A DNA stretch of 64,000 bases from Spirochaetales bacterium (GCA_018399255.1 JAGYPA010000017.1:6130-70129); one strand, 5' to 3'. Positions 8,339 to 37,388 are shown, counted from the stretch's first letter. Made by a program: numbers and translations. The notes: generated by a model not told the origin, from the sequence alone.

Positions 8339-8339
8339 T

Positions 8340-12493: not shown

Positions 12494-12612
12494 TGTTTTC
12501 GCGAAAGGCCGGGATTACCGCCTAAATGCCGGCATGTGAAGGAATTCGGCATGTGAATGAATGCCAGTGAACAGCCAGCCGGCTGTGAAGGAAAAGGAGC
12601 AAGGGTAGTAAC

Positions 12613-13500: not shown

Positions 13501-13536
13501 GAGCAGAAAAGAAAACGCAGGAGACTGGAGAAGACC

Positions 13537-15867: not shown

Positions 15868-15886
15868 GATCAATAAAGGATAACAT

Positions 15887-18670
15887 ATGGATATACAATG
15901 GTATGCTGCAGCGCAGGAGCTGACAGCACAGATGACGCTGGAAGAGAAGGCAAGCCTCTGTTCGGGAAAAGATTTCTGGAACCTCAAAGGCATAGAACGG
16001 CTGAATTTGCCCGAAATCATGGTCACCGATGGACCGCACGGGCTCAGGAAGCAGTCTGAAGAAACCGACCATGAGGGTTTGCGTCCAAGTATCCCGAGCA
16101 CCTGCTTTCCCCGGCCGTCACCATGGCCTGCACGTGGGACCCCGGGCTCATCGAAACCTTGGACGCCCTGGCCGGGAGAGCAGGGAAGAGGGCGTATCAG
16201 TAGTCTTGGGACCCGGGGCAAACATCGCTGATCGCCCCTGTGCGGGCGAAATTTAGTATTTCTCTGAAGATCCCTTTCTTTACCGGAGAATTTGGCCTTG
16301 GCCCACATCCGCGGAGTCAGAGCGGAGGCATCGGCACATCCCTCAAGCATTTTGCCGTAAACAACCAGGAAACCAACCGGCTGTTTATTGATGCCGTGGT
16401 CGATGAACACCCTGCGGGAAATCTACCTGCCTGGATTCGAAAAGGCGGTGAAAGAAGGGTCAGCCTGACACAGTCATTGCGCCTACAATCGCCTGAACGG
16501 CACCTACTGCAGTGAAAACGAATACCCGCTCACCACGATTCCCGGGATCAGTGGGGCTTTACGGGGATGGTCGTTTCCGACTGGGGCCGTAAGCGATCGG
16601 GTAAAGGAATTCAGGCCGGGCTGGACCGGAAATGCCCGCGAGCCGCGGCGAAAACGACCGCAAGATTGTTGAGGCAGTCAAGTCCGGTGCCCTCGCCGAT
16701 GAACTCCCCGACCGGGCAGCCGTCCGGATAACAGCCCTGATTCTCAAGTCGGCAGACTTCCCTCAAGGCATCAGACCCCCAAGGCATCAGACTTCAAGTC
16801 GGCAGCTTCCCTCAAGGTATCAGACCCTCAAGTCAGCAGCCTTCCCGGAATGCCGATCACCCCCGCAGCAGGCAAAGCTGATGAGCAGGGGCAGGGCGGC
16901 CGCATACAATCGGGATCAGCACCATAACCTGGCTCGAACCATCGCCGCCGAAGGCATCGTACTTCTCAAAACCAGGACAACCTCCTGCCGATCACGTGCC
17001 CAGGGAGGCAAACCCCCGCAAACCTCGAAAACAGATAACCCCGGCAAACCCCCGCACCCCCCGCAAAAAGATCGCCGTATTGGCGATTTCGCCCGGAACC
17101 CACGCTATCAGGGAGCAGGAAGTTCGGCAAGTAACCCGACACGCCTTGACTCAGCCCTGGATGCAATAATCGGCAGCCGAACCCTTTGGGCATGCCAGAT
17201 TGATTTTGCCCGGGGCTATGACCCCGACAAAACCGAAAACCCCGATATTTCCGGACACACCGGATACCCCCTGAAAACCCCGAAGCTTCCGACACACCGG
17301 ATACCCCCGAAAACCCCGAAATTCAGCCGGAAAAATCGGACCTTGCAGCAGAAGCCTGCAGACTTGCCGCAGCCGCTGACCTGGTCCTGCTGTTTGCCGG
17401 ACTGCCCGATTCCTACGAATCCGAAGGATTTGACCGCACCCACATGCGCCTTCCTGAAGAACATAACCAGCTGATAAGAGCCGTGGCAAAGGCAAACCCG
17501 AAAACAGCCGTAATACTCAGCAACGGAGCCCCGGTAGAAATGCCCTGGGCAGATTCAGTCCCGGCAATCCTGGAAACCTACCTGGGAGGCCAGGCCGGCG
17601 GCAGCGCCGCGGCAGATGTGCTATTCGGCAAGGTAAATCCATCCGGACATCTCGCAGAGACATTCCCCCTAATCCTGGCTGATACCCCCTGCTGCGAAAA
17701 CTTCCCCGGAGGCAGGTATCGCGTACAGTACCGGGAAGGCCTGCATGTCGGCTACCGCTGGTATGCATCCGCCAACAAACCCGTGCGGTTTCCCTTCGGC
17801 CATGGCCTCAGCTATACCACCTTCACCTTCAGCAAAATGGAGCTCAGCAGGCAATCGATAACGCTGAAAACAGCAAACACGCATCAAGAAACGACCCCGC
17901 TGCTCGAAGTCTCGGTAACCGTGAAGAACACCGGCCAACGGAGCGGCAAAGAGGTAGTCCAGATCTATATACGGCCAAAAAAGAGCTCAGTCTATCGCCC
18001 GGAAATTGAGTTGAAAGGATTCGCCAAAATACTCGTAGAACCCGGGGAAAGCGCAATCGTCACCATCCCCTTGGATGCCAGAGCCTTCTCCTTCTACAAT
18101 ACCGCCATAGGCGACTGGGCGGTAGAGACTGGAACCTACGAGATTCTTGCTGGAAGCTCATCGGAATCCATTCATCTCACAGCTGCTGTACAGATACGGG
18201 TCGATCGGCCTGATACGCGGGAGAGGCTCCTCAGGGAAAATTCGGCTTTTCTGGCCCCGGACATTGATGGGATAAGCTACAGTGACACAGTCTTTGCGGC
18301 TCTGCTTGGGCGGGAAATTCCTTCGGATGTGCCGCTGGAGGATGTTGTCACTCTTAATACACCGCTACGGGATCTGAGAGGGACCGTCGTTGGAGATCAG
18401 CTGCATGCAGGTCTGCTGGCTGGACTGGCGAACCTGTCCACCCCGGAAACCGACGATGTTCAAATCGGAACGGCTTTATCAGCAGTTGATGAAGCCACGA
18501 AGCGTTTGCAAATCAGGCAGAACCGGCAGAAAATGATCAGAATGTTTGAACGAGCTATTGAGGGGATCCCACTTCGGAGCGCATTCATGTTCAGCAGAGG
18601 AGCAGTTTCATTTGCTCAGTTGGAAAAAATGATCAGGCTCCTGAATCAGGAAGGAGGCGCCGAAAGATAA
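15887..18670 (+). pseudogene. GH3 beta-glucosidase (BglX-like), degraded by frameshifts and internal repeat expansions
   Basis: N-terminus [41 protein letters not shown] (GH3). The middle (HFAVNNQETNR.., ..IVEAVKSGAL.., ..HHNLARTIAAEGIVLLK..) is spread over at least 4 frames. The C-terminal 408-aa ORF 17444-18670 carries the GH3 C-domain and FnIII-like domain (AADLVLLFAGLPDSYESEGFDRTHMRLPEEHNQLI..PVEMPW). Pro-rich repeat tracts lie at 16745-16860 and 17240-17335. Confidence 0.75.
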
Positions 18671-19122
18671 ACGGGGGGAATCCGGCTCGCGACAATCCGG
18701 CAGCTCTGCGTATACTTCCCAAACGGAGCGAGAGGAGGAGGGGGCATTTTGATGGTTCCATTCCCGATAAGCCAATTCACAGAATTGGCCGTGCTGGGAT
18801 CGCGGGCAAGTTTCTACTTGCCTTAACAACATACCCCCCCCCTGAGTACTCTGCGGCCCCCTTAGGGGCGGCAAAGGAGTCGAAGCCTCCTGGGTCCCAA
18901 GCATTCCCTTAGGGAATGCCGCTTGCCCATGGTAAGCCGCTTGCCCTGGAGTATGATACCCTGTCAGCAGTATACCCTGTGGAAAACGATTACTCAACTG
19001 AGGCGGAAGCTGTGCTGGCAGTGCAGTCGCAAAGCAGGCGAACAATCTTGTTTTCAATCGTTACGCAGTGCTATTTTCCCTCAAAACTGAAGTTGCTGGT
19101 GCGGAGCAAGGTTGGCAACAGG

Positions 19123-19178
19123 CAACTCACCTACAACTCACCTACAACTCACCTTCAACTCACCTTCAACTCACCTCG
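19123..19178. repeat. Tandem 10/11-nt repeats (caactcacct)x5
   Basis: Direct reading. Downstream of vapC. Confidence 0.8.
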
Positions 19179-19190
19179 GAAAGAAAACCC

Positions 19191-19598
19191 TCAGTTTACC
19201 AGGGTCCAATCTTCAATTCGCAGGTCCGGAATTCTGCAGTATTCTTTTGTGTTATGGGTTACAAGAATCCCATTTCCGGCGAGAGCGGTTGCTGCTATGA
19301 TAAGATCATTTGGTCCTATAACATTTCCCTCCAGTTCAAGAGAAGCGCGAAGATCAGCATATACTGCCGCAGCAGAGTCACCAAAGGGTACTATTTCCAT
19401 CGGCCGCAGGAAAGAGTAAATATTATGAAGGTTCTCCTCCCTTTTCATACTCTTCTCAGCTCCATACAGGAGTTCAGCTTTAACCATGGATGGAATTTTG
19501 ATTTGATCAGAATGGTGCTTTGCTAATTGAGGAGCTATAGAGGGGAATAGCCCTTTGAGAAAATAGATACAGATATTCGTATCAAGATACCAGTTCAC
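19191..19598 (-). CDS. vapC: Type II toxin VapC (PIN-domain ribonuclease)
   Basis: MNWYLDTNICIYFL... with the PIN acidic residues (D6, E, D, N near C-terminus). 135 aa. Overlaps the upstream antitoxin gene by 4 nt. Confidence 0.8.
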   Translation of the reverse strand: MNWYLDTNICIYFLKGLFPSIAPQLAKHHSDQIKIPSMVKAELLYGAEKSMKREENLHNIYSFLRPMEIVPFGDSAAAVYADLRASLELEGNVIGPNDLIIAATALAGNGILVTHNTKEYCRIPDLRIEDWTLVN

Positions 19599-19825
19599 AA
19601 TAATTCCCTTGGAAGGTCTGCAGGAAATTCAGGAGCATCAGGTACTGAAAATGAGTCATCATGTATGGATCCGAACAGCTGGAAAAATTTTTCAGGCCAC
19701 TCTGATTTCAGACTTTTCTTTATCACGCGGGAAACAAATTTTGAGATTGACAGGTTAGCTGAATTGGCGGCAGTTTCCACTTCCTTGAGAGTTTCAGCAT
19801 CAATGTAAAGGGATATTTGCGGCAT
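19595..19825 (-). CDS. Cognate antitoxin (VapB-like, putative ribbon-helix-helix)
   Basis: Small ORF translationally coupled to vapC (ATGA overlap). MPQISLYIDAETLKEVETAA... is typical of RHH/CopG-like antitoxins. Confidence 0.55.
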   Translation of the reverse strand: MPQISLYIDAETLKEVETAANSANLSISKFVSRVIKKSLKSEWPEKFFQLFGSIHDDSFSVPDAPEFPADLPRELL

Positions 19826-19910
19826 AATTTCCTCCCGCTTTAACAAGTATACCCCCAAGTATACTTGTTAGGCCTGTTTCTGTCAAGGGAGGGGAAGAAT
19901 GGGGGAAGAA

Positions 19911-19972
19911 TGGTGTCTGACACCGTATCCCGCAAAAAAACCCTGTTAAATTTCGGAATCCGGTAACAGTCG
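19911..19972. repeat. 55-60-nt double-hairpin repeat element, copy 1 of 3
   Basis: TGGTGTCTGACACCGTATCCCGCAAAAAAACCCTGTTAAATTTCGGAATCCGGT: perfect inverted repeat GGTGTC/GACACC followed by a stem ATCCCGC...GCGGAAT with loop AAAAAAACCTGTTAAATT. Confidence 0.8.
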
Positions 19973-19983
19973 TCGAAATGCAG

Positions 19984-21480
19984 CTACTGAGCCTTTATGT
20001 TCTTAACCGCGGTATCTAAGTCTTCTCGCTGTATTACCTGGAGAGGGATCGGCCTGCTGCTGTCGGAGCAGTTTATGATCAGACGATGATGAATACCCAG
20101 CCGTATTGAATAAAAATCCCCGCCCCCCCCAGTTTTCAACTTCTTTGTCTGCTTGAATACCTCCCTGTTGCGGGTACAGAAACCGGTAAAGGATTCGACA
20201 GCCTTTTTTTTGACTCCCGGTTCAAGCATCTCCAGTGATTTCTGAAACTTCTCAGGGAATACCGGAATGCAAAAAGGGAGAGTTCCCATCTCCGACTCTC
20301 GCAGGTCTTCCTCAACGTTTTCCCTCAGGTCCTGGTCATCACTATCCTGTATCTGCGACTCCCGAACCTGAGTTCTGAGCTCCCGGAAAGATTCCTGTTT
20401 TGTGCTGATAATCTGTTTCAGATGGGCTATCTTTTCCCTGCTCCTTTTGATCGCGTCATCATCAGCATGAATTCTCTGAGGGTGCTGCTCGCTAGACTCT
20501 ATTCTGTTCTGCAGCAGGGTTATTTTTTTCTTTTGCGCGGCACTCTCAGCATGTGCTTCCCGTAACTCCTTCTTCAGCTCCTGCATTTCTTCCCTGATAA
20601 ATTCATCCGGTTCTCGGTCATCGTCTTCATCGGCCAGGTCCTGATACAGATCCATAACGGCGAGAGCGGGATCTTCCCAGTAGTCAATGTCAAGATCTGA
20701 ATAGATTTCCATGATATCCTCGTGCATCGATTCAATATCAAAAAATCTCTCAGGAGAGGTTGCTGTCACAGCCCTGAACAGCAGCACGGCTATTCCAGGA
20801 TAGTGATGCCTGATGGTGTAAAACAGGTCGATAACTTCTTCAAGCTCCTCAATTCCCCGCACACATACCTGTTCGATATAATCCAACACTGCACCGGTAT
20901 TCTTTCGATAGAGGCTGCAGAGGAATTCTACCTTTTTGTAATCATTGCTTTCGGTATTGAAAAACAGTTTCAGAATCCGGGGAGCGAATTCAAACCGGTT
21001 GTCATAATTTATATGAAAGGCTGCATCCATTATCCAGTTATCAAAGGCATCATCCATTTCCGGCAGGGTGATTTTACGGTTTCGCAATCGCAAGGTTTCT
21101 TTTCTGCCCGGTAAAATTCCGTTGGTATCCTCATAAAACCTTCTCAGTTCAACAAGAAAATGGAGGGCGAGGAGAATATCTGAGTGAAGAGCAGTTTTAA
21201 AAGCTGCCGCTGCCTGATCTTTCGTCATGTTCTGCACATCAAGATCCTGCAGCTCGATGAGTGACATTTCCCGAATTTCCCTCACACTGAATGCTGCTAC
21301 ATTGTCTTTTTTCAGCTGATAGTTGTGCTCATGGGCAGTAACATAATGAGAACCCGGCAGAATCCCTCCAAGGCAGCAGTTTTTGTACTTTTTGCCGCTG
21401 CCGCAGGGGCAGGGATCGTTGCGTCCTACCTTTTTCTCTTTTCTTACCAGAGGTTCTTCAGGGAAATAATCTTCATTCAT
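19984..21480 (-). CDS. SEC-C-motif protein with helical/coiled-coil middle and a C-terminal tail resembling RelE/ParE toxins
   Basis: N-terminal [18 protein letters not shown] is the SecA-C-terminal metal-binding motif. The central region is charged and coiled-coil ([35 protein letters not shown]...). The C-terminus ..[42 protein letters not shown] follows the ySiRig-yRiiY...vl.V.hR pattern of RelE/ParE; this is inference. The start is at MNEDYF, because the upstream extension runs through a tandem repeat. Confidence 0.65.
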
Positions 21481-21554
21481 TGCCCTATCATATCGATCTG
21501 CTGCAAAAACAGCAATAATGTCGCTGGCAAAGATGTCCACAAGTAACAGCGAAC

Positions 21555-21594
21555 GGGCAGCAAGACTGCTGGAGGGCAGCAAGACTGCTGGAGG
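21555..21594. repeat. 2 tandem copies of the 19-bp unit GGGCAGCAAGACTGCTGGA
   Basis: Same unit as the 5-copy array at 22497-22590. Confidence 0.8.
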
Positions 21595-22496
21595 GTGTAA
21601 GTGCCCGAATTAATTTGACCCAAATACCCACATTGTTTTAAATCGAAAATCCTTCAGTAGTTGCTAAAATCCCGAGATATTATCAACTTTCTCTTTACCC
21701 GCATATTTTTACCGAACGACCATAGCGCGGGCATACACGTCCTGATGCAGCAGCACAAGAAAACGGCAGCCCTCAGGCTGCCTTAAGCGCCCGGCGGGCG
21801 CTCAGAAGCGGTGGAAATCCGATTTCTATGGGAAATCCGATTTCCTCCTTCTTTTTTGGGAAATCCTGTCATGACTGCAAAGGAGGGCAGGATTTCATGG
21901 GTTTGCAGGGTTGCATAGGAGGCTATGATTGAAAAAAGAAGGGCAATAAAAGCAGCTGATGGGAAGAGAAACCCGGTTAAGTCCGGCTCAATATACACAT
22001 GTCGCACGAGTAGCCGGAAGGAAGCAAATAAGGTTTTGCAGGGTAAGGAGCTGCTGAGAGGGTCACGAAAACCTTAAGCCTGGCTCAAAACACACGTGTC
22101 GCACGAGGAGGAGGGGGCGGAATTATGCAAGGGACAGGGGCAAATAAACTATATCTTCCCATGCCGGCTGAATGTTCCTTCAGTTTTGCAGCAAGGACAG
22201 ATCAACCCCCTGACAAAAGCCTTGCAGTCAGGGTAGCGTGATTCAAAGCAGTAATTTTCTTTTGTGGTTCTTAAGCAAATTATCGCTTTATTTGGAGACC
22301 CGGTCAAACCTGAGGCTCTTGCAAAAAGCAAGAGCGACGTTTTGGAGCTAATATTCAAAAATGTGAAGCATTTTGAAATTGGCTCAACTGTCAAAAGAAT
22401 TATGCCCGGTCTCTTTTCTCCTTTCTTAATACTACCAAGAATTTTAATACGGGTATTTCTCTCATTTCAAGTCCTTTTTTTGCGGGATTCTACAGA

Positions 22497-22590
22497 GGGC
22501 AGCAAGACTGCTGGAGGGCAGCAAGACTGCTGGAGGGCAGCAAGTCTGCTGGAGGGCAGTAAGACTGCCGGAGGGCAGCAAGACTGCAGC
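22497..22590. repeat. 5 tandem copies of the 19-bp unit GGGCAGCAAGACTGCTGGA, with no spacers
   Basis: Direct reading. The unit is itself semi-palindromic (GCAGCA/TGCTGG). Confidence 0.85.
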
Positions 22591-22627
22591 CAGGCTTTGC
22601 CAGCTCAGGTAAAGTCCGGTAAAATTA

Positions 22628-23026
22628 TCAGGCAAGCTCGGCGGTTTCCCGTTTGATCCTTTCGTAAATATTTCGCGCTTCGATAATAAAATCGTACGCA
22701 TCCTCATAAGAGGGCATTCCATCGGGCAGTAAGCCCAGGTCTGATGGATATCTTGCCTCTATATAGGTTTCATTGATCATCTTGAAAGTTTCCATATTAA
22801 TGTCTAGCTTCAGATAGTTCCTCACTGTACCATATAATTTGATCAAATTATGTATTTTAGGAATTTCATTTGTTTTCAAGATGATCAATGCCTTAAACGA
22901 TTTCTCAACGCATTGATGACAGTGGAAGGTAACATTGTTGGTCAAGTCAGGATCTGTTAGAATCAATTCTGCTGTTTTTAAATCTTTTTCTGCAAAACGC
23001 AGCCATTCATCAACGAGTTGTTTCAT
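22628..23026 (-). CDS. HEPN domain protein, toxin-like partner of the adjacent nucleotidyltransferase
   Basis: 132 aa, all-helical. Overlaps the upstream nucleotidyltransferase gene by 17 nt; this HEPN/MNT operon organisation is classic. Confidence 0.7.
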   Translation of the reverse strand: MKQLVDEWLRFAEKDLKTAELILTDPDLTNNVTFHCHQCVEKSFKALIILKTNEIPKIHNLIKLYGTVRNYLKLDINMETFKMINETYIEARYPSDLGLLPDGMPSYEDAYDFIIEARNIYERIKRETAELA

Positions 23027-23354
23027 AAAGCACTTTCCCTTTTTCTATTTCCCTGATGAATGGATGATTAACTTCACATGATTTTTCATATTCTGTTCTG
23101 GTATAAACCACCAGGTCAATGGGTACTTCATAGCTGATATCCAGTATCGCATTTCTCACTAATAATTTATTTTTTATTCTTTCCCGGTAGTTCTGAGGGA
23201 TTTCAAAGCTGTTCAGAATAACAGCCAGATCAATATCACTATCTTTATGTTCATTGCGCTCGGATAATGAGCCAAACAGAACTATTTTATATACGTCAAT
23301 GCCCTTCAGGGCATTAATAATTATTGGCAGGTAGTGGTTCAGTGACATTTCCAT
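23010..23354 (-). CDS. Minimal nucleotidyltransferase (MNT) domain protein
   Basis: LFGSLSERNEHKDSDIDLAVIL is the GS...DxD motif of Pol-beta-type nucleotidyltransferases. Confidence 0.8.
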   Translation of the reverse strand: MEMSLNHYLPIIINALKGIDVYKIVLFGSLSERNEHKDSDIDLAVILNSFEIPQNYRERIKNKLLVRNAILDISYEVPIDLVVYTRTEYEKSCEVNHPFIREIEKGKVLYETTR

Positions 23355-23443
23355 GAATCTATCTTACCGCAGATTATAATGCCTGTCATCAGCTATATCC
23401 CGGTGGAGAGCACAGGTGCACGGAAAAAGTGTGTCTGTGAGAT

Positions 23444-23502
23444 TGGTGTCTGACACCGTATCCCGCAAAAAAAACCTGTTAAATTGCGGGATCCGGTACC
23501 AG
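23444..23502. repeat. Double-hairpin repeat element, copy 2 of 3, followed by (acaccgaa)x4 at 23507-23540
   Basis: TGGTGTCTGACACCGTATCCCGCAAAAAAAACCTGTTAAATTGCGGGATCCGGT; the stem ATCCCGCAA/TTGCGGGAT is perfect. Confidence 0.8.
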
Positions 23503-23711
23503 ACATCCAAACACCGAAACACCGAAACACCGAAACACCCTTACCATTGTTAACGAAAGTTCTTTATGATACGGTAGGCTTGCGACAGGGTATTCGGAAG
23601 CCCCCATTGGAATGTGGTACGGCTGATTGTAGAGGTATAGCATTGCACTTGCCGTAAGACAGCTGGATTACCGTTTACCGTAACACTATCTGTTTGGAGA
23701 AAAGTTGAGAT

Positions 23712-24869
23712 ATGCAAGTAGGATGCACAAAGAAACTGTTGGATTATATGGGCTTGAAGGCTGAACCTGCTGACCCGGAAGCGGATCCCGTATTGAGCTG
23801 GAGTGCCAATAGCATTACGATCAACCACCGCCGGGCCATCATCGCCGGCAACGACTCATCACGATATGGATTCATATTGTACGGCATCAAGAGTAAGGAT
23901 AAAAAGAACTTGGGAAGGCTGCTTCTTGATGGAGTACGTGCATGCCTGGAAGCCGAGTGCATAGCCCCTGAACTCATACACAGGTATATGGACGATTGCG
24001 GGGCAAATGTCACCTTCACAAAGACACCCGGCAGCTCTGTAGTGGCAAGACTGAACAAACTATGTCTTAGTGCGTCATATATTGCAGAACTGCTGACCAC
24101 TGAACAACTGTTTCAGCAGCAGATATTACTGAGATTCAATAACGATTACATTACAAGTAAAAGCGAACCCCCAGGAGATTACAAAAACGGCCCTGCAAGC
24201 GAATCCCCAGGAGATCGCAAAAGGATTTATCACAACGTATACACGAAATTTGCCGATGACATTTCCCAGCGGTATGGTGCTCACCCGTATGGCTGCAATG
24301 CAGTTGAGCTCGAGGTGGAGCTCGAGTTGGAAAGCCTGTGCCGCAGGCGGATCATCGTCCCCTCCGGCTATACCTTCCGGCAGTTACATCTTGTTCTCCA
24401 AAACCTTTTCTGCTGGCAGCGCTGCCATCTGCATGAATTCTCGATAGAACGCTATCCGAACGGCCGGTTGAAGCACACGCTGGTCGGACATCCTCAGGAG
24501 TTTGATCTGGAAGGTGAGACCACACAACCGGATAGTTCAGTGCAGCTCTCCGAAATATTCCCACACTATGATCACATCATCTACACCTATGATTACGGGG
24601 ATGACTGGACCCATCACATCCGGTTTGTTGGCATCATCAACAATTATGATAAGAATCATGCGGTATGCCTCAGCGGAGAGGGCGATGCTCCCCCTGAGGA
24701 TGTGGGAGGAGCTCCCGGGTATGCCCGGCTGCTTCAGGTTCTGGCAGATCCTGAAGATCCTGACTATGACAACCTGAAGGCATGGTACGAATGGATGCAC
24801 TGCAGACCTTTCGATCTGGACAGGGTGAACAGCGCCTTACAGCACTGCGTGAGATCGTATGATTACTGA
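23712..24869 (+). CDS. Plasmid pRiA4b ORF-3-family protein (PRiA4_ORF3 domain) with N-terminal extension
   Basis: C-terminal block ..IYTYDYGDDWTHHIRFVGII..CLSGEGDAPPEDVGGAPGY.. matches the conserved Y-D-[FY]-G-D-D-W-x-H core of the pfam PRiA4_ORF3 family, an IS-associated passenger protein. Confidence 0.6.
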   Translation: MQVGCTKKLLDYMGLKAEPADPEADPVLSWSANSITINHRRAIIAGNDSSRYGFILYGIKSKDKKNLGRLLLDGVRACLEAECIAPELIHRYMDDCGANVTFTKTPGSSVVARLNKLCLSASYIAELLTTEQLFQQQILLRFNNDYITSKSEPPGDYKNGPASESPGDRKRIYHNVYTKFADDISQRYGAHPYGCNAVELEVELELESLCRRRIIVPSGYTFRQLHLVLQNLFCWQRCHLHEFSIERYPNGRLKHTLVGHPQEFDLEGETTQPDSSVQLSEIFPHYDHIIYTYDYGDDWTHHIRFVGIINNYDKNHAVCLSGEGDAPPEDVGGAPGYARLLQVLADPEDPDYDNLKAWYEWMHCRPFDLDRVNSALQHCVRSYDY

Positions 24870-25029
24870 TAATACGATAACAGACGAACACAGCCGAATC
24901 AGCGCGCCCAGCGGAACATAGCAAGCAAGGCCAAACACAGCGCGCCCAGCGAACACAGCCGGCCCCATAAAGATTGACCGGCTGCCTGCCGGTGCGGTAT
25001 ACTCAGCGTTGTATGAGAGGGGCGTATAC

Positions 25030-26175
25030 ATGAAAATTCTCGTAACCGGGGCGGCCGGATTTATCGGCTTTCACCTTTCCAGAAAATTACTCGAAAACTC
25101 CCGTGAAATAATCGGGATTGATAACCTGAACACCTATTACGATCCGGCGCTCAAACAGTCGAGACTCCAGCAATTGGAGCAGTACCCGGAATTTACCTTT
25201 CAGAAGGTTGATATAAAAGACAAGGCAGCCGTAGACACCCTCTTCGAAACGCATCGGCCCACACACGTCATCAACCTGGCAGCTCAAGCCGGCGTGCGCT
25301 ACTCAATCGATAACCCCTACGCCTATGTGGATTCAAACCTCATTGGCTTCGTGAATATCCTCGAAGCCTGCAGAAACAACCCGGTAGAGCACCTGCTCTA
25401 TGCATCCTCCAGCTCCGTCTATGGGGGCAATACCGTCGTACCGTTTTCTACCGACCACAATGTTGATCACCCCGTCTCGCTCTACGCGGCCACAAAGAAA
25501 GCCAATGAACTGATGGCCCACACCTACAGCCACCTCTATGGCATCCCCACTACCGGACTCCGCTTCTTCACCGTATACGGACCCTACGGCAGACCCGATA
25601 TGGCCTACTACTCATTTACCAAAGACATCCTTGCCGGAGTCCCCATCAAAGTCTTCAACCACGGAAAGATGGAGCGGGACTTCACCTATATTGATGACAT
25701 TGTTGAAGGCATCGTGAAGCTTATCGATAAACCGCCGTCCGCCGGCAAAAAGCGGGACGGAACACGGAACAAGAGAGTGGACGATACCCGAAATGATGGC
25801 CGGAATGTAAGCTTGGACGATGGCCAGAAAGAGAGCCGGAATGCAAGCTTGGACGATGGCCAGAAAGAGAGCCGGGATGATGCGAATGCCAGCTTCGCTC
25901 CCTACAAGATATATAACATCGGAAACAGCAAGCCCGTGCCGCTGATGAGATTTATCAGCGCCCTGGAAACCGCCCTGGGCAGAGAGGCTGATAAAATCTA
26001 TCTGGACATGCAGCCGGGAGATGTCCCGAGGACCTACGCCGACGTCTCAGAGCTTGAACGGGACATCGGCTTCAGACCCTCGACCGCCATCGAGGACGGA
26101 CTTGCACGCTTCGTCGACTGGTACCTCGAATACCATCAGATTGAGAAAAAAACCGCACTTTCACACAAAGGATAA
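25030..26175 (+). CDS. NAD-dependent epimerase/dehydratase (UDP-glucuronate 4-epimerase-like) carrying an in-frame tandem-repeat insertion
   Basis: Rossmann GAAGFIGFH motif and YAATKKANE (YxxxK catalytic motif). A 36-bp unit gtaagcttggacgatggccagaaagagagccggaat is repeated twice in frame at ~25800-25880 (..RNVSLDDGQKESRNASLDDGQKESRDD..), within a surface loop before the C-terminal subdomain. Confidence 0.85.
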   Translation: MKILVTGAAGFIGFHLSRKLLENSREIIGIDNLNTYYDPALKQSRLQQLEQYPEFTFQKVDIKDKAAVDTLFETHRPTHVINLAAQAGVRYSIDNPYAYVDSNLIGFVNILEACRNNPVEHLLYASSSSVYGGNTVVPFSTDHNVDHPVSLYAATKKANELMAHTYSHLYGIPTTGLRFFTVYGPYGRPDMAYYSFTKDILAGVPIKVFNHGKMERDFTYIDDIVEGIVKLIDKPPSAGKKRDGTRNKRVDDTRNDGRNVSLDDGQKESRNASLDDGQKESRDDANASFAPYKIYNIGNSKPVPLMRFISALETALGREADKIYLDMQPGDVPRTYADVSELERDIGFRPSTAIEDGLARFVDWYLEYHQIEKKTALSHKG

Positions 26176-26228
26176 GACAAGCAAAGGGTACCCGACCAAG
26201 GGACAATACTGACAAGGGGTAAAAAACA

Positions 26229-27395
26229 ATGAAAATAACAATTGCCGGAACCGGCTACGTAGGCCTCTCTAACGCCATTCTGCTCGCTCAGCATAATGAA
26301 GTCATCGCCCTCGATATCATCAAGGAAAAAGTTGCGCTGATAAACCAGAGGAAATCACCCGTCATCGATCCCGAAATAGAAGAGTACCTGGCCGAAAAGG
26401 ACCTGAACCTGAGAGCGACAAACGATAACTACGAAGCCTTCAAGGATGCCGAATATATCATAGTCTCAACCCAGACAAACTACGACCCGGAAAAAAACTA
26501 CTTCAACACCAGAAGCGTAGAAGCTGTCATAGCCAATGTCCTGTCGATAAACCCCGATGCAATAATGGTGATCAAATCAACCGTACCGGTAGGCTACACA
26601 GAGGCGATCAAGGAAAAATTCGAAACAGACAATGTCATCTTCAGCCCGGAGTTTCTGAGGGAGGGCAAAGCCCTATACGACAACCTCCACCCCTCGAGAA
26701 TCGTCGTCGGCGAGCAGTCCGAACGGGCGAGAGTGTTTGCCGGGCTTCTGGCACAGGGGGCCATCAAAAAAGACATCCCGATACTCTACACCAATCCCAC
26801 CGAGGCCGAAGCCATCAAACTCTTTGCCAACACCTACCTTGCCCTGCGTGTGGCCTATTTTAACGAGCTCGACTCCTATGCAGAAATGCGCGGCCTCGAT
26901 ACCCGGCAGATAATTGAAGGAGTAGGCCTGGATCCCCGCATCGGCACCCACTACAACAACCCCTCCTTCGGGTATGGCGGATACTGCCTGCCGAAGGATA
27001 CAAAACAGCTGCTCGCCAACTATCAGGATGTACCCCAGAACATCATGTCAGCAATCGTAGATGCCAACCGCACGCGAAAAGACCATGTAGCAGACATGAT
27101 CATAAACAGGAACCCGAAGACCGTAGGCATCTACCGACTCACCATGAAAATGGATTCTGACAACTTCCGCCAGTCAGCAATCCAGGGAATAATGAAGCGA
27201 ATCAAAGCCAAAGGCATCGAGACCGTCGTCTACGAGCCAGCCCTCGAGGGAGACGAGTTCTACCGGTCAAGAGTAATAAAAAACATAGACGAGTTTAAGA
27301 AAATCTCCGATGTCATCGTGACCAACAGATTATCACCGGAAATTGCCGACGTGGCAGACAAAGTCTACACCCGGGACCTCTTCAGCCGGGACTGA
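26229..27395 (+). CDS. ugd: UDP-glucose 6-dehydrogenase
   Basis: [21 protein letters not shown]-terminus, catalytic Cys region [10 protein letters not shown], 388 aa. Confidence 0.9.
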
Positions 27396-27450
27396 GAAGG
27401 GCGGAGGGAGGGATCCGGTATTTGGGATCCGGCATCTAGGGTGATGAGAG

Positions 27451-27513
27451 GGTGTCTGACACCGTATTCCTCAAAAACACCGGGTTAAATTGCGGAATCC
27501 GGTGTCAAACACC
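27451..27513. repeat. Double-hairpin repeat element, copy 3 of 3 (the most diverged)
   Basis: GGTGTCTGACACCGTATTCCTCAAAAACACCGGGTTAAATTGCGGAATCCGGTGTCAAACACC. The long stem GACACCGTATTCC/GGAATCCGGTGTC is preserved by compensatory changes. Confidence 0.75.
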
Positions 27514-27801
27514 AAAACACAATTAACGAGCGTAAGATCCATTGATACAGTGTGATGCCTATGGGGGCTACCACCACTCGGGTCAGGCTGACTCAATATC
27601 ATCAGGAGAAAGTGAGGTTTCCTTGTTAAGGATTGGGGTATGTAAAACCAGCTTGCCTATGTTGTGCAGCAAATCGATGACTTTCCAACCCCAGCTGCCC
27701 CATCCCAGCCCCCCTGGATAGTCACTCCCGCATCAGGCGCTTATAAGCGTAAACGCCCCGCACGTAATTGATTTTTGATCAAATTCGTTCTATAAACCGT
27801 T

Positions 27802-29682
27802 ATGGAACAAATTAAAAAAATAAAAAACAGCTGTGACAGGTTCAACAGAAACCTGGAAGAAATTGAGCCGTCTATGTACAGATGGGTCCTGCGGTCCGCG
27901 TCTGTAGCAAGTGATATCGCTGAACTGAAGAAACGGGAGCAGGATCCCGAGAATGCGTATCCAGAGAATTGGCATGACATGATGGCTGCCGGCCGCGCGA
28001 TCTCCTATACCCTGACCCGAAAAGAACGGATACAAAAATTTCTCGGAAGTCACCGGCACAAGATTACCGATGACGCAATAGAGCTGCTCAAACATCTCCA
28101 AGACAACCCCCTGCGATGGACTGCCTTCAGGGTGGACGAAAAACTCGATAAAAACCTGTTCAGGATAACGGATGTACTGGATAAGGAAAAACAGCTTCCT
28201 CCACTCTACTCAATAGGCGTCTCCAACCAGCTGAGAAGCAGCATAAGCCAGGATACCCTGTTTATCACCCTGATTTTGGACAACGGAGAATCTTTGCAGA
28301 CCATCGGCATCATCCACAGCTACCTCTCGGTAACGGAAAATGACCTCGACTTCCTCTGCAGCGTCCTGGACAAAGATCTCTACGAAAACCGGGGACTCTC
28401 AGGCGTTATCAGCAAACATTTTCTCAAGTTTTTCGCAATTGATGAGATCGCGGAAATACCGCCCATTGTCTTTCGCGGAATGCTGTCAGAGGTTATCTGG
28501 CGGGAGCTGCATCTGGAAGATATCGGCAGAGTGCTGCTGCCGGGAAATTGGGATATTGAAGAAACAATAGATGGGGTACTCAGATTTGAATTTCTCGGAC
28601 CGGATGAAAAACTCACAGCCCTGGAACCGATGGCCGGGCAGAACCCTGAACAACCCTGGAAGATGGCAGGCATGTTTCCTTCCTATCTCTATCTGTACCC
28701 GCAAAAGCAGACTGCCTGCATCCACGCAGCATCATTTCACGACTATACCATACTGCATCAGGTACTTAACGGTAAATTCGACCTCGAAGAAGGTGCCCGC
28801 GGCCTGCCGTTCTTTCGCATATCCTCCACGGTGTGGAGCATAGCCTCACAAATACCCGATTTAGCACTGCCTTGGGATTGGTACATAGAACAGTTCGAGG
28901 AGGAAGAGGATGAAGACCCCGAGGACCCCGAAGATACCGAAAACCCCGAGGGCACCGAAGATTCACCCTTTATGGCATCCATAAATACACTAATTAGTGA
29001 AGTAATGATTGCCAGAAATTCAGGCACTGAGGTCGATATCCCGAAGCGCTGCGATGAACTGGGGCTCGATCTTTCCATAGCGGAATCCATTCTGGAACAA
29101 TTGGAGGGGGTGACGAAGAGGATGATGCCCGATCTCGAACTTACAGATGACGACAGGACATGGGAAATACCCGACCTCACGATACCACCTCCGTCAATCC
29201 GCCGGGAATTCTCCAGGCCCTTGTACAATTCTACGCTGTTCACGACAAATGAGACCCGGCACAGCTATGAGCTCTTTGCCTCACTGGCGGGAGAAAAAAA
29301 TGCGGTAAAGACTGAACCCGGGGACATGGCAGACTACATTACCTCCCTCTTTGAAGAAACCTTCGACCGGTTTGGCCCCACAATCATGAGCAGCCTGTTT
29401 TTAATACTTTTAGAGCAGGGAGACCGATGGGTCTCGGTGCGCTCCTGCGGAATAGAGATCCTGAAGCTGTTTCACCAGGTGCTGCTTCCCACGCTCAAGA
29501 CTGACAAGGATACCTTTCTCTCCCAGTTCAGCCGGTTTGTGCTCATGTCCCTTTGCTCCAACGGGCTGCTGGAACTATCAGAACGGCCGAAAGGCGAAGC
29601 ACGCACCCGTGGAACCTACAAAATCAGACCGAGTGCCTTCTTTCGACAATTCATAGCGCTGAATGCAAAAAGAATTGATTAG
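27802..29682 (+). CDS. Hypothetical 626-aa protein with an acidic E/D/P-rich linker; paralogue of 4101-6020
   Basis: See the paralogue alignment blocks under 4101-6020. The acidic tract EEEEDEDPEDPEDTENPEGTED lies at ~28890-28960. Confidence 0.7.
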   Translation: MEQIKKIKNSCDRFNRNLEEIEPSMYRWVLRSASVASDIAELKKREQDPENAYPENWHDMMAAGRAISYTLTRKERIQKFLGSHRHKITDDAIELLKHLQDNPLRWTAFRVDEKLDKNLFRITDVLDKEKQLPPLYSIGVSNQLRSSISQDTLFITLILDNGESLQTIGIIHSYLSVTENDLDFLCSVLDKDLYENRGLSGVISKHFLKFFAIDEIAEIPPIVFRGMLSEVIWRELHLEDIGRVLLPGNWDIEETIDGVLRFEFLGPDEKLTALEPMAGQNPEQPWKMAGMFPSYLYLYPQKQTACIHAASFHDYTILHQVLNGKFDLEEGARGLPFFRISSTVWSIASQIPDLALPWDWYIEQFEEEEDEDPEDPEDTENPEGTEDSPFMASINTLISEVMIARNSGTEVDIPKRCDELGLDLSIAESILEQLEGVTKRMMPDLELTDDDRTWEIPDLTIPPPSIRREFSRPLYNSTLFTTNETRHSYELFASLAGEKNAVKTEPGDMADYITSLFEETFDRFGPTIMSSLFLILLEQGDRWVSVRSCGIEILKLFHQVLLPTLKTDKDTFLSQFSRFVLMSLCSNGLLELSERPKGEARTRGTYKIRPSAFFRQFIALNAKRID

Positions 29683-29705
29683 ACTCATTGGATCATACTT
29701 GCTGC

Positions 29706-29948
29706 ATGATAACAGAAAATATGTATCAGGCAAAAACACACTTATCCAAACTCGTTGCTAAGGCACTTCAAGGAGAAGAGGTTATCCTCGCCAAAGCTGG
29801 AAAACCCCTGGTAAAGCTTGTCCCCGTTTCGCAGTTGGTTAAACCGGTCAAAATAGGCCTGCTGAAGGGAGAAATCAAGATTTCTGATGATTTTAACGAA
29901 TTCGCTCCAGAAATCGAAGACATGTTCGATGGGTATCTTCCAGAATGA
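29706..29948 (+). CDS. Phd/YefM-family type II antitoxin (orphan)
   Basis: MITENMYQAKTHLSKLVAKALQGEEVILAKAGKPLVKLVPV matches the Phd/YefM N-terminal fold (..AKanLseLv..v..GeeviItr.GkPvakLvP). The 50 codons downstream in the ATGA-coupled frame (MTSALLLECSLPPQRFVRH...) look like a truncated toxin remnant. Confidence 0.65.
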   Translation: MITENMYQAKTHLSKLVAKALQGEEVILAKAGKPLVKLVPVSQLVKPVKIGLLKGEIKISDDFNEFAPEIEDMFDGYLPE

Positions 29949-30154: not shown

Positions 30155-31090
30155 ATGCCTTCAACCTTCAAAGATCTGAGGATTGTCGACAATTTCTACC
30201 AGACATCAAGCTTTTTCCCCATGCCCACTATCGTGATCGGAACCCTCTGTGAGGACGGCCTGACGAACCTGGGTTCCTACTCGCTCTGCTTTCCCTATTA
30301 CATCGCCGGGAAAGAGTACTATGCCATGCTGCTGGAGTGCCGGAACAACTCCAATACCGCCGTAAACCTGCTGCGGACGGGGAAATGCAGCCTCAACTTC
30401 ATTCCGGACCGGCGTAAATATTTCAAGGAGGCTGTACGGCTGGGGTACCCTGGAGATACGCCGCAGGAGAAGGTAAAGGACACCATCTTTACGCTGGAAA
30501 AGGGCCTGCGGGCACAGGAGGATCCCGACGGCCGCTATCCCGAAATCATAGCCGAATCATTCCAGGTCTTCGAATGCAGCTGGGACAGCTCGCTGGACAA
30601 TGCCAGTGAGGATACCGTACAGGAACAGTACAATCCCCCTTTCCGGAATTTCAACGGGATTACCAGTACCTTTGGTGCTCATTTCATCCTCAAAGTAGAG
30701 CGGATACTGATGCAGGAGCGCTATCATGCCGCGATAGTCAACGGAATGCGGGCCGGCAGATTTCCGAGAGTGCCGGTAGATTACGGATATCGTGATAATA
30801 CCCGGTTCTGGTATACCCGTTTCCGTCGGCCTCTTGCCCAATTGATCCCGAAGAAGAAGGGACAGGAACTCTCGTCTGTTGTCTACGCTGCCGATCGGAT
30901 GGATGATCAGGTCAAGTTCACCGAAGCAGCCTGTGCCCGACTGGTGAACGTGCCGCGGGTCTTTCTCAACACCGCACTTTCCGCCTGTGTGAAATGGGCA
31001 AAGGAGAACGGAGTAGTGGAGATCACCGCCGAGCATATGGATATCATCAACGACAAACGCTCGAAAGAGAAAGGCCGGCGTCGTTCCTGA
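30155..31090 (+). CDS. Flavin-reductase-like (FMN-binding split-barrel) domain protein with C-terminal extension
   Basis: The N-terminal ~150 aa (PMPTIVIGTL..GLTNLGSYSL..TAVNLLRTGKCSLNFIP..) resemble the Flavin_Reduct fold. RBS aaaggag lies 8 nt before ATG 30155. Confidence 0.4.
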   Translation: MPSTFKDLRIVDNFYQTSSFFPMPTIVIGTLCEDGLTNLGSYSLCFPYYIAGKEYYAMLLECRNNSNTAVNLLRTGKCSLNFIPDRRKYFKEAVRLGYPGDTPQEKVKDTIFTLEKGLRAQEDPDGRYPEIIAESFQVFECSWDSSLDNASEDTVQEQYNPPFRNFNGITSTFGAHFILKVERILMQERYHAAIVNGMRAGRFPRVPVDYGYRDNTRFWYTRFRRPLAQLIPKKKGQELSSVVYAADRMDDQVKFTEAACARLVNVPRVFLNTALSACVKWAKENGVVEITAEHMDIINDKRSKEKGRRRS

Positions 31091-31240
31091 TACGGATTCG
31101 AGGTTTGTGCAGCAAACTAAATCAGGAAGGCGATATTGACCAAAAGAGAACCGACAAATAATAGCCGTATTCTGGAGCCAATATCCAGGTTGCTGTTTCT
31201 ATCGGAGCAGCTGCTGTCGAAAAAGCGACTTGAAGGAAAA

Positions 31241-31318
31241 ACCGTTCAGTTAGCCGATGAGCTGATGTACCGTTCAGTTAGCCGATGAGCTGATGTGCCG
31301 GATGAGCTGATGTACCGG
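31241..31318. repeat. About 2.5 tandem copies of the 28-bp unit ccgttcagttagccgatgagctgatgta
   Basis: Direct reading. Convergent intergenic region. Confidence 0.8.
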
Positions 31319-31390
31319 AGTAAACAGCAGAAGGTGATAAGTCCGACAGACTCCTGGTAAAAAAACGCGGATGCCCAACTTAATAAAAAA

Positions 31391-32920
31391 TCAAGTTTTT
31401 TTCTTTGATATCCTTTGCATAAACTTCCTTAGCACACGGCGATATATCTTTGTTTGACTAAGTACCGTTAAACAAATAACAAGAAACAAGAGAAGGGCTA
31501 CTGGTCTCGTAAATACTGGGAGAAAACTTCCTTCTGAAACCATCAATGCGCGTCTGAGATTCTGATCAGCCATTGGACCTAAAATCACCCCGATTATCAG
31601 AGGAGCAATTGGATATCCCATTTCATTGAGGATAAATACTATGACACCAATGATTACCATAAGAAAAAGGTTGAATATTCGCATGGAAAGAGAATATGAC
31701 CCTATTACACACAAAACAGCAATTATCGGCATGAGCACTGAGGTAGGTATACGAAGCAGATTTACGACTTGTTTAGCGAGCATGATACCGATAATCCACA
31801 TAGCAAACGAAGCAAGAAGGAGAATGGCGGCAATCTCAATGATGAACGTGGGGTGATCAATCGCAAGCATCGGGCCTGGTTGAATCCCATGGAGCATAAG
31901 TGCACCGAGCAGCATTGCAGCGGGAGGGCTTCCTGGAACTCCCAGTGAAAGTAATGGTATCATAGCACCGCCGATACAAGCATTATTTGCAGTTTCACTT
32001 GAAATCACTGCTTCTACCTCACCAGTCCCAAATCGTTCAGGATGCCTGCTGGCGTTTTTCGCTGCTCCGTAGCTTACCCATCCCGCAATATCTTCGCCAA
32101 TTCCAGGGACTGCCCCGATACCTACTCCAATGAGAGAAGAGCGAATAATTGTAGGAATATTTTTAATAATAGTCTTAAATTCCGGGAGTATCCTGGTGAA
32201 CTTTTTTGTTTCCTGTGGTTTTTGACTATCTCGAATGACCTGAATTATCTGAGGAATGCCAAAAGCACCAATTAGTACTGGAACGATATCCAACCCGCCG
32301 TCTAAGTCAGACAGACCAAAGGTGAACCTGGGATAAAATTGAAGCTGGTCTCTTCCAATTACTGAAAGGAAGAGTCCTAGAAACCCTGCTATCCATCCCT
32401 TATAGACCAGGTCAGGACTGGTAAGAGTACCAGAAATAATAATACCAAAGAAAGCAAGCAGGAAAAACTCAAAACTGGTGAACTGCAGAGCGATTTTTGA
32501 AATAGCAGGGGCAAGTCCTACAACAAACAGCATACCAATTATGGTGCCGATTGCGGAACTGGTTGTCGTTAACCCTAAAGCTTTTCCCGCCTCTCCTTTG
32601 CATGCAAGGGGATAACCGTCAAGTGCTGTAGCAGCTGAAGCTGCGGTTCCAGGTATGTTTAGAAGAATTGAAGCGTATGATCCGCCATATACTCCTCCCA
32701 CATAGACCCCTAAAAGGGCGATAAGGGCTAGGTTGGTAGTCATTCCGTAGGTGAGGGTAGTCAGGAGAGCAACTCCCAGCGTGGCGGTAAGTCCAGGTGT
32801 AGCGCCAAACATGATTCCCATGAAGACTGACCCGAAGAGCAGCAGCATTGCCGATGGATTAATGAGAACTGCACCCATTGAATTCGAAAAAATACCAAAT
32901 TGTGAAAAAAAGTTCATGCA
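31391..32920 (-). CDS. tctA: Tripartite tricarboxylate transporter large permease TctA
   Basis: ~510 aa polytopic membrane protein with the typical TctA N-terminus (MNFFSQFGIF..AVLINPSAMLLLFGSVFMGIMFGATPGLTATLGVALL). Confidence 0.85.
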   Translation of the reverse strand, partial: CMNFFSQFGIFSNSMGAVLINPSAMLLLFGSVFMGIMFGATPGLTATLGVALLTTLTYGMTTNLALIALLGVYVGGVYGGSYASILLNIPGTAASAATALDGYPLACKGEAGKALGLTTTSSAIGTIIGMLFVVGLAPAISKIALQFTSFEFFLLAFFGIIISGTLTSPDLVYKGWIAGFLGLFLSVIGRDQLQFYPRFTFGLSDLDGGLDIVPVLIGAFGIPQIIQVIRDSQKPQETKKFTRILPEFKTIIKNIPTIIRSSLIGVGIGAVPGIGEDIAGWVSYGAAKNASRHPERFGTGEVEAVISSETANNACIGGAMIPLLSLGVPGSPPAAMLLGALMLHGIQPGPMLAIDHPTFIIEIAAILLLASFAMWIIGIMLAKQVVNLLRIPTSVLMPIIAVLCVIGSYSLSMRIFNLFLMVIIGVIVFILNEMGYPIAPLIIGVILGPMADQNLRRALMVSEGSFLPVFTRPVALLLFLVICLTVLSQTKIYRRVLRKFMQRISKKKT

Positions 32921-32927
32921 GTCCCCC

Positions 32928-33704: not shown

Positions 33705-33814
33705 GACAATCTCCTGATATTCATGTATGTATATCCTTGAATGCAGTTGTGTGCACTGCAGAAAAGTTTGCAGTGCACACAATTTCAGAAAGTTTTAATC
33801 CCTAAGAATGCTGT

Positions 33815-37333: not shown

Positions 37334-37388
37334 GAAACAGTTTCACAAGTATTAAAGCAAATTTTCCACCCGGCACATAAAAAAAGTG

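Follow-up and report, generated by a model that had tools for sequence, protein, structure and literature searches.

A possible MITE/REPIN-like palindromic repeat at sites of rearrangement in a Spirochaetales genome

An intergenic palindromic element of ~63 bp is present three times, within 8 kb and always on the plus strand, in a 64,000-nucleotide stretch of DNA from a Spirochaetales bacterium (GCA_018399255.1 JAGYPA010000017.1:6130-70129; this whole stretch is referred to as the window). The explanation that we tentatively prefer, with somewhat less than an even chance of being right, is that the element is a lineage-specific, non-autonomous palindromic repeat of the same kind as miniature inverted-repeat transposable elements (MITEs) and REPINs (hairpin-forming doublets of repetitive extragenic palindromic, or REP, sequences), and that it acts as a hot spot for rearrangement. 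The unit would then be a non-coding palindromic DNA repeat of ~63-72 bp, low in copy number and restricted to one lineage, its hairpin potential stemming from two 24-bp terminal inverted repeats and not from selection on an RNA fold. Copies would have been put into intergenic DNA by an enzyme encoded elsewhere, and we infer both this mobilising enzyme and its insertion mechanism. New copies would often land next to earlier ones, or replace them, and then decay, while the long palindrome together with the strongly conserved left terminus (TGAGAnnGGTGTCTGACACC) would turn the sites into local hot spots. Comparison with relatives reveals, beside the left end, partial terminal duplications, an inversion and copy replacement or gene conversion, as well as gain or loss of a small two-gene, toxin-antitoxin-like module. 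The element could be the cause of these rearrangements or may merely reside with them in a plastic region. That it acts as DNA is suggested by the discrete units with unrelated flanks, the partial neighbouring copies, the inversion, the turnover and the decay described below.

Copies of the element and their distribution

Three homologous units on one strand had been claimed in an earlier note on this DNA, and they are indeed present, with bounds that we have revised slightly (Table 1). Their left 17-mer, GGTGTCTGACACCGTAT, has exactly three exact occurrences in the window; when up to three mismatches are allowed there are six matches against 0.10 expected, a number reached in none of 100 shuffles. 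A covariance model built from eight copies recovers the three at 85-91 bits (E ~1e-20 to 1e-22), and no fourth full copy is found in the 64 kb, the next match scoring only 14.7 bits. The gene calls of the window confirm that all three copies are intergenic, and so are all of those in related loci.

Beyond the window, a strict pattern that fits ~80% of known copies was scanned against one genome per species for 185,579 species. It returned two real copies (loci L010 and L012), both in the metagenome-assembled genome (MAG) 'Spirochaetia bacterium Tobar13.5m-G43'; the other 10 of the 12 matches were due to chance and fall in genomes that are unrelated or high in GC. Of two scans over JGI metagenome contigs, one was empty and the other gave a single match, which is no full element, and three scans of IMG/VR gave zero, zero and seven matches, all seven of which were dismissed as chance by the covariance model. 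Nothing relevant emerged when the element was compared by BLAST with 72,556 plasmids and with phages, a text search of the literature for the core 11-mers found only primers in unrelated papers, and Rfam gave no match for the whole window at the gathering threshold, nor for 19000-28000 at E <= 1.

Exact-protein look-ups were more productive, recovering a Logan contig identical to the window (L013) and a syntenic 19-kb locus from a close relative (L015), together with loci from the same strain as L015 or from nearby strains (L016-L018 and L021); look-ups with the PRiA4 and PIN proteins had no match. The L015 locus has the element at the same three positions (copies A, B and C). There are five independent element loci in at least three genomes, with sharp boundaries and unrelated flanks. 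The copies of the Tobar MAG are ~80% identical to those of the window, and comparable proteins of the two genomes, which are not clear orthologues, match at just 25-45%. The element family is new to Rfam and to the literature and, since the scans gave only this organism, its close relative and one Spirochaetia MAG, it has a low copy number and a range limited to one narrow lineage of spirochaetes.

Two matches from these scans were rejected as members of the family. L001, from the genome scan, is an unrelated palindrome that has the GGTGTCTGAC motif in common with the element, and L014, the lone JGI match, is a 25-nt similarity between tRNA genes on a proteobacterium-like contig. Both unrelated proteobacterial contigs (L001 at 3102-3156, L014 at 300-335) carry sequences of the type GGTGTCTGACACC(A/G)TTTTCC, like the left arm of the L012 copy; in L001 the sequence is a perfect 40-nt palindrome, and in L014 it lies between tRNA-Tyr and tRNA-Gly genes. 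This likeness may be due to chance or may reflect a wider motif.

Architecture and folding

The unit is one long imperfect inverted repeat, in which two 24-nt arms enclose a 15-nt A-rich loop, AAAAAA(C/A)CnTGTTAAA. The left arm, GGTGTCTGACACCG(T/G)ATCCCGCAA, pairs continuously with the right arm, TTGCGGRATCCGGTnnCAGACAyC, so that a single 24-nt pairing takes the place of the double hairpin that had been proposed. The 6-bp inverted repeat GGTGTC/GACACC with its 1-nt spacer, also described at that time, does exist, though inside the left arm, as a rival pairing to the long stem; a palindrome of double-stranded DNA, GGTGTC-N-GACACC, describes it better than a separate stem-loop. The best-preserved copies have a mirror of it, GGTGTC-A-GACACC, at the outer end of the right arm, and in copy 3 the right arm holds a second, near-perfect palindrome, GGTGTCAAACACC. 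Conservation is asymmetric: the well-kept part runs from ~8 nt of left flank (TGAGAnn) through the left arm and the loop to the inner right arm, whereas the outer 10 nt of the right arm are poorly conserved.

The inverted repeat is real, since 81% of the paired cells across eight copies can pair, compared with 28-41% when the partners are slid. A change on both sides of the stem is seen in only one of 192 cells, namely a C-G to T-A change in copy 3; fixed mismatches are frequent (C-A in four of the eight copies, U-C in five), and the covariation score is matched or passed by 475 of 500 shuffles. The two-sided change in copy 3 is the one from which the earlier note had argued for selection on structure, an argument that these figures do not bear out. 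Extensive pairing without covariation is what would be expected of terminal inverted repeats related by common descent.

Folding energies lead to the same point. Copy 2 folds best (z = -6.1 as RNA, -7.1 as DNA), copy 3 reaches z of about -4.6, and both fold strongly on either strand (-4.7 to -6.1). Copy 1 does no better than its shuffles (z = -1.0 both as RNA and as DNA) and, along with copy B of L015 and the L010 copy, belongs to three of the eight copies with shuffle-like values (-0.75 to -1.26), the remaining five ranging from -4.3 to -7.1. The orthologue of copy 1 (L015 4345-4405) has kept its stem (z = -4.3), and copy 1 differs from it at stem-breaking positions even though the surrounding block is 97% identical, which indicates that the stem of copy 1 has decayed. 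The fold and covariance model that had been suggested as a check thus give covariation no higher than in shuffles and a fold that three of eight copies lack. Intrinsic terminators have a GC-rich stem and a short loop followed by a T-run; here the loop is 15 nt long, copies 1-3 lack a T-tract after the stem on both strands, and the 13 terminator-like sites of 19000-28500, like all promoter-like matches, lie off the elements.

These results bear directly on the idea that the element is a structured small RNA whose fold is under selection, one of the options raised at the outset. The strong folding of copies 2 and 3 on both strands is in its favour, but the lack of covariation above shuffles, the common fixed mismatches, the stem decay with three of eight copies unfolded, the absence of an Rfam match and of any promoter or terminator, and the inversion of one orthologous copy leave it unsupported, and we regard this reading as close to refuted and scarcely credible.

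A stationary cis-acting site, with a function either as a palindrome for a dimeric protein or as a hairpin at an mRNA 3' end, is a rather improbable explanation, both variants taken together. In the first variant GGTGTC-N-GACACC would be an operator, an insulator or a site for a nucleoid protein; in the second a hairpin at gene 3' ends would stabilise or terminate the upstream mRNA in the way of enterobacterial REP elements. In its favour, nearly every one of 11 copies has an unbroken left palindrome, whereas the outer right arm varies freely. Moreover, three sites lie ~5-15 nt past an upstream stop codon, that of the SEC-C gene (copy 1), a UDP-glucose dehydrogenase gene (L015 copy C) or an ATP-binding cassette (ABC) permease gene (the L010 copy), and the element sites other than these three are in divergent promoter regions. 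On the other hand, there is no T-tract after the stem and no terminator- or promoter-like match on an element, the hairpin is not kept in three of eight copies, the rate of change in orthologous copies is no lower than in the DNA around them (94% identity against 97.3%), and orientation and placement relative to genes are inconsistent. A regulator site would also leave the flanking partial copies and the copy turnover unexplained. From reading of the sequence, a sigma-54 promoter and an integration host factor (IHF) site were rejected, their spacing and core motifs not fitting the element.

Rearrangements beside the left end

The alignment of the window with L015 is a mosaic, with 97% identity over the PIN toxin-antitoxin pair, copy 1 and the SEC-C gene, 78% over the PRiA4 gene, 89% over the epimerase and UDP-glucose dehydrogenase genes and 81% over the gene for a 626-aa protein. 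Copy C of L015 is reversed relative to copy 3, its left extension included, and the same is true in L016 and L017; the claim that all copies share one orientation therefore holds within the window but not at the copy 3 position of the related locus. This intergenic region once held at least three copies, judging from copy 3 or C itself, the two inner-right-arm fragments directly 5' of copy 3, and a downstream remnant. The fragments are probably leftovers of an older copy in inverted orientation, like copy C of L015; the sequence GGATCCGGT has two occurrences in the window, the second being within copy 2. The downstream remnant is orthologous to a better-kept sequence in L015, GTAAACACCGGATCCCGCATAAGCGTAAACACC (9925-9960), and the segment between copy 3 or C and the remnant is 210 nt long in the window, where L015 has a two-gene module.

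At copy 2, a 1.9-kb segment that has no counterpart in L015 sits exactly between the promoter region of the SEC-C gene and the left extension of the element. The junction in L015 reads CAGCAATAA/TGAGATGGGTGTC, as against CAGCAATAA/TG...GTGTGTCTG/TGAGATTGGTGTC in the window, and the end of the insertion, GTGTGTCTG, is a partial copy that matches the initial 9 nt of the site. With copy A of L015 copy 2 shares 94% identity and with copy 1 90%, but only 79% with its positional counterpart, copy B, although its left flank is B-like. The copy now at this position is therefore the product of replacement or conversion. Two strains that are 94-98% identical, represented by short contigs from other samples with an identical HEPN-MNT pair, have differing tandem partial duplications at the left end of copy 2 (35 nt in L030, ~15 nt in L029), and their right-terminal tandem repeats differ as well; at the position of the octamers that follow copy 2 in the window, L030 has (CAAACACC)n. 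Partial copies stand beside full ones at 27410-27436 in the window and in L010 (5397-5425), L030 (102-134) and L015 (9925-9960).

Two larger differences between the loci were noted in passing. A 13-kb block of the window (6205-19156), with genes for a sensor kinase, a regulator, an ABC transporter, and GH31 and GH3 proteins, and a 10.4-kb block (31072-41518), with TctABC, BKACE, GntR and transketolase genes, are both missing from the syntenic L015 locus; no hairpin element lies at the boundaries of either block.

Repeat or recombination site

Neither a transposase, a RAYT (REP-associated tyrosine transposase), an IS200-like protein nor a recombinase is encoded by the non-overlapping open reading frames (ORFs) of at least 70 aa that were scanned in the window, and the 19-kb L015 locus likewise has no integrase or recombinase. 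The search for a RAYT or IS200 gene that the earlier note had in mind thus came back empty for the 64 kb, a result that fits mobilisation of the repeat in trans.

Several observations weigh against a MITE/REPIN-like repeat. Across eight aligned copies, whose bounds are approximate, there is no target-site duplication or consistent flanking direct repeat. No empty site was recovered; L019, considered as an empty-site comparison, was set aside, having a homologue of the 626-aa protein (54% identity) but no synteny. No autonomous partner with matching ends turned up in the window, the fetched loci or the collection scans, and copy number is far under that of typical REP or MITE families. The clustering of three copies within 8 kb, along with two-gene modules at the left end of four of five loci, fits a functional site, for recombination or binding, equally as well as a selfish repeat. 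Finally, conservation of the left arm, the loop and the inner right arm persists even in copies without a hairpin, which could mean that sequence-specific recognition is still under selection.

A recombination site is the main rival, although we judge it unlikely. The elements would be folded hairpins resembling the attC sites of integrons, or other att-type sites, at which small modules, for the most part of toxin-antitoxin or defence-candidate genes, are inserted, exchanged or inverted by a recombinase encoded elsewhere, the 19-30 kb stretch then being an array of cassettes with no integrase linked to it, much like a CALIN (cluster of attC sites lacking integron-integrases). Three co-oriented sites 3.5-4 kb apart, with a size and layout like those of the attC sites of Treponema denticola (63-68 bp; PMC3607928), would suit such an array. 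The insertion with the HEPN-MNT pair is placed exactly at the left boundary of copy 2 and ends by repeating the site's initial 9 nt, L015 has a two-gene module where 210 nt separate copy 3 of the window from the remnant, the shifts in identity between the window and L015 (97% to 78%, 89% to 81%) coincide with copies 2 and 3, and neighbouring genes match defence-candidate families. This explanation accounts better than a MITE/REPIN-like repeat for the precise left-end insertion and for the association with modules at four of five left ends.

Against it, the AAC/GTT triplets, the sole strictly conserved feature of attC sites, are absent, GAC/GTC standing in their place. A model built from five T. 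denticola sites (sequences from PMC3607928) does rank copies 2 and 3 first in the window, but on the minus strand, opposite to that of the elements, and with just 13-14 bits (E = 0.4-0.5). Neither the 64 kb of the window nor the 19 kb of L015 encodes an integrase or any other recombinase, the HEPN-MNT insertion came without a further full site, the orientation of one site is reversed in L015, and the supposed cassettes are large, of mixed gene orientation and equipped with promoters of their own. Copy 1 has lost its stem, and homologues of the SEC-C gene (L020, 47% identity) and of the MNT-HEPN genes (L033, 69% identity) occur in other genomes with no element nearby. As to the recombination- or partition-site option of the earlier note, insertions, replacements and an inversion between relatives do map to element boundaries, but there is no recombinase nearby and the defining features of attC are absent. 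We give a low probability to a more specific proposal, in which the elements would be an unrecognised type of hairpin recombination site with an attC-like layout and a GAC/GTC core, with crossover at TGAGAnnGGTGTCTG/AC, serving an unlinked recombinase in free-living Spirochaetia for the capture, swap and inversion of toxin-antitoxin and defence-candidate modules.

Genomic neighbourhood

The features of the window that belong to the element family or adjoin it are collected in Table 1.

Table 1. Copies and remnants of the element and adjoining features in the window
Feature	Position	Strand	Remarks
Copy 1	19912-19974	+	86.3 bits (covariance model); left arm and loop intact, right arm mutated; stop codon of minus-strand SEC-C gene (19984) 9 nt away; ~25 nt to the -35 box of the PIN promoter
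Copy 2	23445-23507	+	91.3 bits; strongest-folding copy; between the divergent MNT-HEPN operon (minus) and PRiA4_ORF3/DUF6933 gene (plus)
Copy 3	27451-27513	+	84.9 bits; 55 nt 3' of the UDP-glucose dehydrogenase stop codon
Left boundary of copy 2	23429-23444	+	Partial duplicate of the element's first bases (GTGTGTCTG), then conserved left extension TGAGATT
Tandem octamers	23507-23540	+	~4 copies of ACACCGAA, echoing the right-terminal motif of the element
Two inner-right-arm fragments	27410-27436	+	GGGATCCGGTAT and GGGATCCGGCAT; directly 5' of copy 3
Decayed arm-like remnant	27719-27760	+	..GTCACTCCCGCA..GCGTAAACGCC; read from aligned sequences, below the covariance-model threshold
Candidate old left-arm remnant	1982-2000	-	GTCTGACACCATCTCCC then CTGACACCATCCCCC; tentative
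1.9-kb segment without L015 counterpart	21519-23437		19-mer tandem repeats, ~900 nt of non-coding DNA, HEPN-MNT pair
HEPN toxin and MNT antitoxin pair	22628-23354	-	Pfam HEPN, NTP_transf_2, Polbeta; start codon 91 nt from the left end of copy 2
PIN toxin and small antitoxin pair	19191-19858	-	Palindromic operator (presumed); start codon 54 nt from the left end of copy 1

The left end of the element faces a small two-gene module at four of five loci, these being the PIN pair (copy 1), the MNT-HEPN pair (copy 2), an MNT gene (L012) and an unnamed pair (copy C of L015). The PIN assignment comes from the orthologue in L015, which has a PIN domain. The pair has a near-consensus promoter (TTGACA-17-TATACT, 19886-19858), overlapped by a 14-bp perfect palindrome, AACAAGTATAC..GTATACTTGTT (19838-19886), which is presumably the operator of the antitoxin. 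Elsewhere, a Phd/YefM-type antitoxin gene (29688-29948) is solitary in the window, whereas in the corresponding stretch of L015 (12004-12626) it is adjoined by a PIN toxin gene; the toxin gene has thus been deleted in the window, which has no counterpart of L015 12265-12718.

Several neighbouring genes match families of phage-defence candidates, namely PDC-S01 (1.7e-57), S62, S63, S12 and S09, so that the stretch in which the elements lie is plastic and defence-island-like. Among the matching genes are the divergent genes at 707-3396 for an AAA_14/DUF4143 ATPase and a SWIM zinc-finger protein (PDC-S01, 1.7e-57, and PDC-S62, 6.6e-16). The arm-like remnant at 1982-2000 falls between these two genes, and the region around it (1965-2002) is a weak match to the covariance model (10.7 bits, E = 2.1).

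The 1.9-kb segment has a repeat structure of its own. Tandem arrays of a 19-nt unit, GGGCAGCAAGACTGCTGGA, in its own right a small hairpin (CAGCA..TGCTG), lie at 21555-21595 and 22497-22594 and flank ~900 nt of non-coding DNA with a 37-nt direct repeat (21977-22013 and 22074-22110). In L029, L030 and L032, contigs from other samples, the second array is fused straight to window position 20785, with loss of the 5' portion of the SEC-C gene. The organism and its relative are unusually rich in short tandem repeats (7-28 nt), both in intergenic and in some coding DNA (window 127-206, 3842-4045, 4301-4364 and 31241-31296; L015 13780-13820); examples are (GGCTGATA)n, units of 21-22 nt and a 28-mer present twice. 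Two apparent gene fragments were also seen. At 16632-18670 a GH3 ORF begins in the middle of its C-terminal domain and follows an ORF of proline-rich repeats with high GC (0.58) and a strong AT skew, and at 9702-10319 there is a truncated ORF of 205 aa for a solute-binding protein.

If the element is a mere decaying miniature palindrome its value is modest, the family being very small, rare and found in under-studied environmental spirochaetes; it would then still be a clean example of palindromes that mark sites of strain-level rearrangement and of toxin-antitoxin gain and loss. Were the left terminus truly to recombine, this would amount to a cassette-capture system that departs from the rules of canonical integrons, amid many defence-candidate genes.

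Relationship to known systems

With the attC sites of T. denticola the element has in common an order of 7-nt box, 5-nt spacer, 9-nt box and loop, GTCTGAC/GTCAGAC in the element corresponding to GTCTAAC/GTTAGAC in T. denticola (PMC3607928). The right box is degenerate in most copies. As in CALINs, co-oriented copies bound accessory genes, including toxin-antitoxin pairs, and the host is a spirochaete. CALINs are by definition without an integrase, so that the missing integrase rules out a complete integron only. The 3.5-4 kb spacing, the multi-gene content of mixed orientation, the inverted orthologous copy and the lack of an IntI gene set the element apart, however, and membership among integron attC sites was rejected on the absence of AAC/GTT triplets and of an integrase together with the non-significant model score.

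Modules bounded by pdif sites and moved by Xer recombinases are alike in being small and accessory, often toxin-antitoxin pairs, with short repeated sites at their borders and no recombinase encoded nearby. The loop motif TGTTAAAT, which the L012 copy lacks, is similar to the core of the XerD arm of dif, which is a lead only. The element does not have the 11-6-11 layout of dif, its ATAA/TTAT inner palindrome or its central region of 6-8 nt, and, although Xer/dif-type sites are found at the replication terminus or flanking modules, the cumulative GC skew has no sign change at the element region; a dif/Xer site was rejected on spacing and core motifs.

It is very improbable that the conserved left 40 nt are the terminal inverted repeat of a Tn3-family transposon, with the elements as solo or foldback remnants. 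Tn3-family ends have a repeat of ~38 bp with a GGGG start and an ACGYTAAG end, a 5-bp duplication and a DDE transposase of ~1000 aa, and these transposons are known carriers of toxin-antitoxin pairs. The outer 10 nt of the element, GGTGTCTGAC, are comparable with GGGGTCTGAC of Tn3, and an A-tract followed by GTTAAA lies near the position of the family's A-rich tract and ACGYTAAG motif. Alignment scores exceed those of shuffles for Tn3 (p = 0.003-0.03) and Tn4430 (p = 0.001-0.04), a lead only, as among the comparison repeats that of Tn3 alone is certain. The similarity is weak and inconsistent: scores against four other Tn3-family repeats are not significant, and the run of A residues raises the values. 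In place of GGGG the element has GGTG or GGGTG at its terminus, and in place of TAAG it has TAAA at the inner end; the right arm has no such similarity, the toxin-antitoxin modules are outside the presumed end and not inside it, there is no transposase or resolvase in the window and no 5-bp duplication, and the BLAST search of 72,556 plasmids gave nothing relevant.

Closer to the element are the MITEs of bacteria, such as Correia elements (also NEMIS, Neisseria miniature insertion sequences), RUP (repeat units of pneumococcus) and the Tn3-derived inverted-repeat miniature elements (TIMEs). The terminal inverted repeats, here of 24 bp, the small size, the lack of coding capacity and the several dispersed intergenic copies are all found, the distribution is lineage-restricted and patchy in a manner suggestive of horizontal spread, and a pair of copies could in principle bracket and move the genes between them. 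Differences are that the element has neither a target-site duplication nor a parent insertion sequence that we could find and that its right repeat is far less conserved; at ~63 bp it is also smaller than any described MITE of which we know.

REP sequences, REPINs and bacterial interspersed mosaic elements (BIMEs) of proteobacteria, which are mobilised by RAYT Y1 transposases, are short, extragenic and non-coding, with two inverted arms that each contain a small palindrome and together form a long hairpin, and in the element each 24-nt arm is likewise made up of GGTGTC-N-GACACC and GGATCCCGCAA. Frequent placement at gene 3' ends, clusters with partial copies and the lack of a nearby transposase are further points in common. 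REP and REPIN sequences have tens to hundreds of copies per genome, and the RAYT gene is typically flanked by REPs. The copy number of the element is orders of magnitude lower, with three copies in 64 kb and two strict-pattern copies in the lone related genome among 185,579. It also has no recognisable conserved 5' tetranucleotide of the GTAG type and no RAYT in the window, its host is a spirochaete, and its sub-palindrome has a 1-nt centre and so cannot form a REP-type stem-loop alone. The earlier suggestion of an element like REP or PATE (palindrome-associated transposable element) sequences is hence borne out in so far as a small extragenic palindromic repeat that acts as DNA is the best fit, and not as regards a RAYT or IS200 gene or a high copy number. 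Taken as a new, small and rare member of the bacterial palindromic intergenic repeats, the element vindicates the mobile, REP-like idea in kind, with a putative mechanism.

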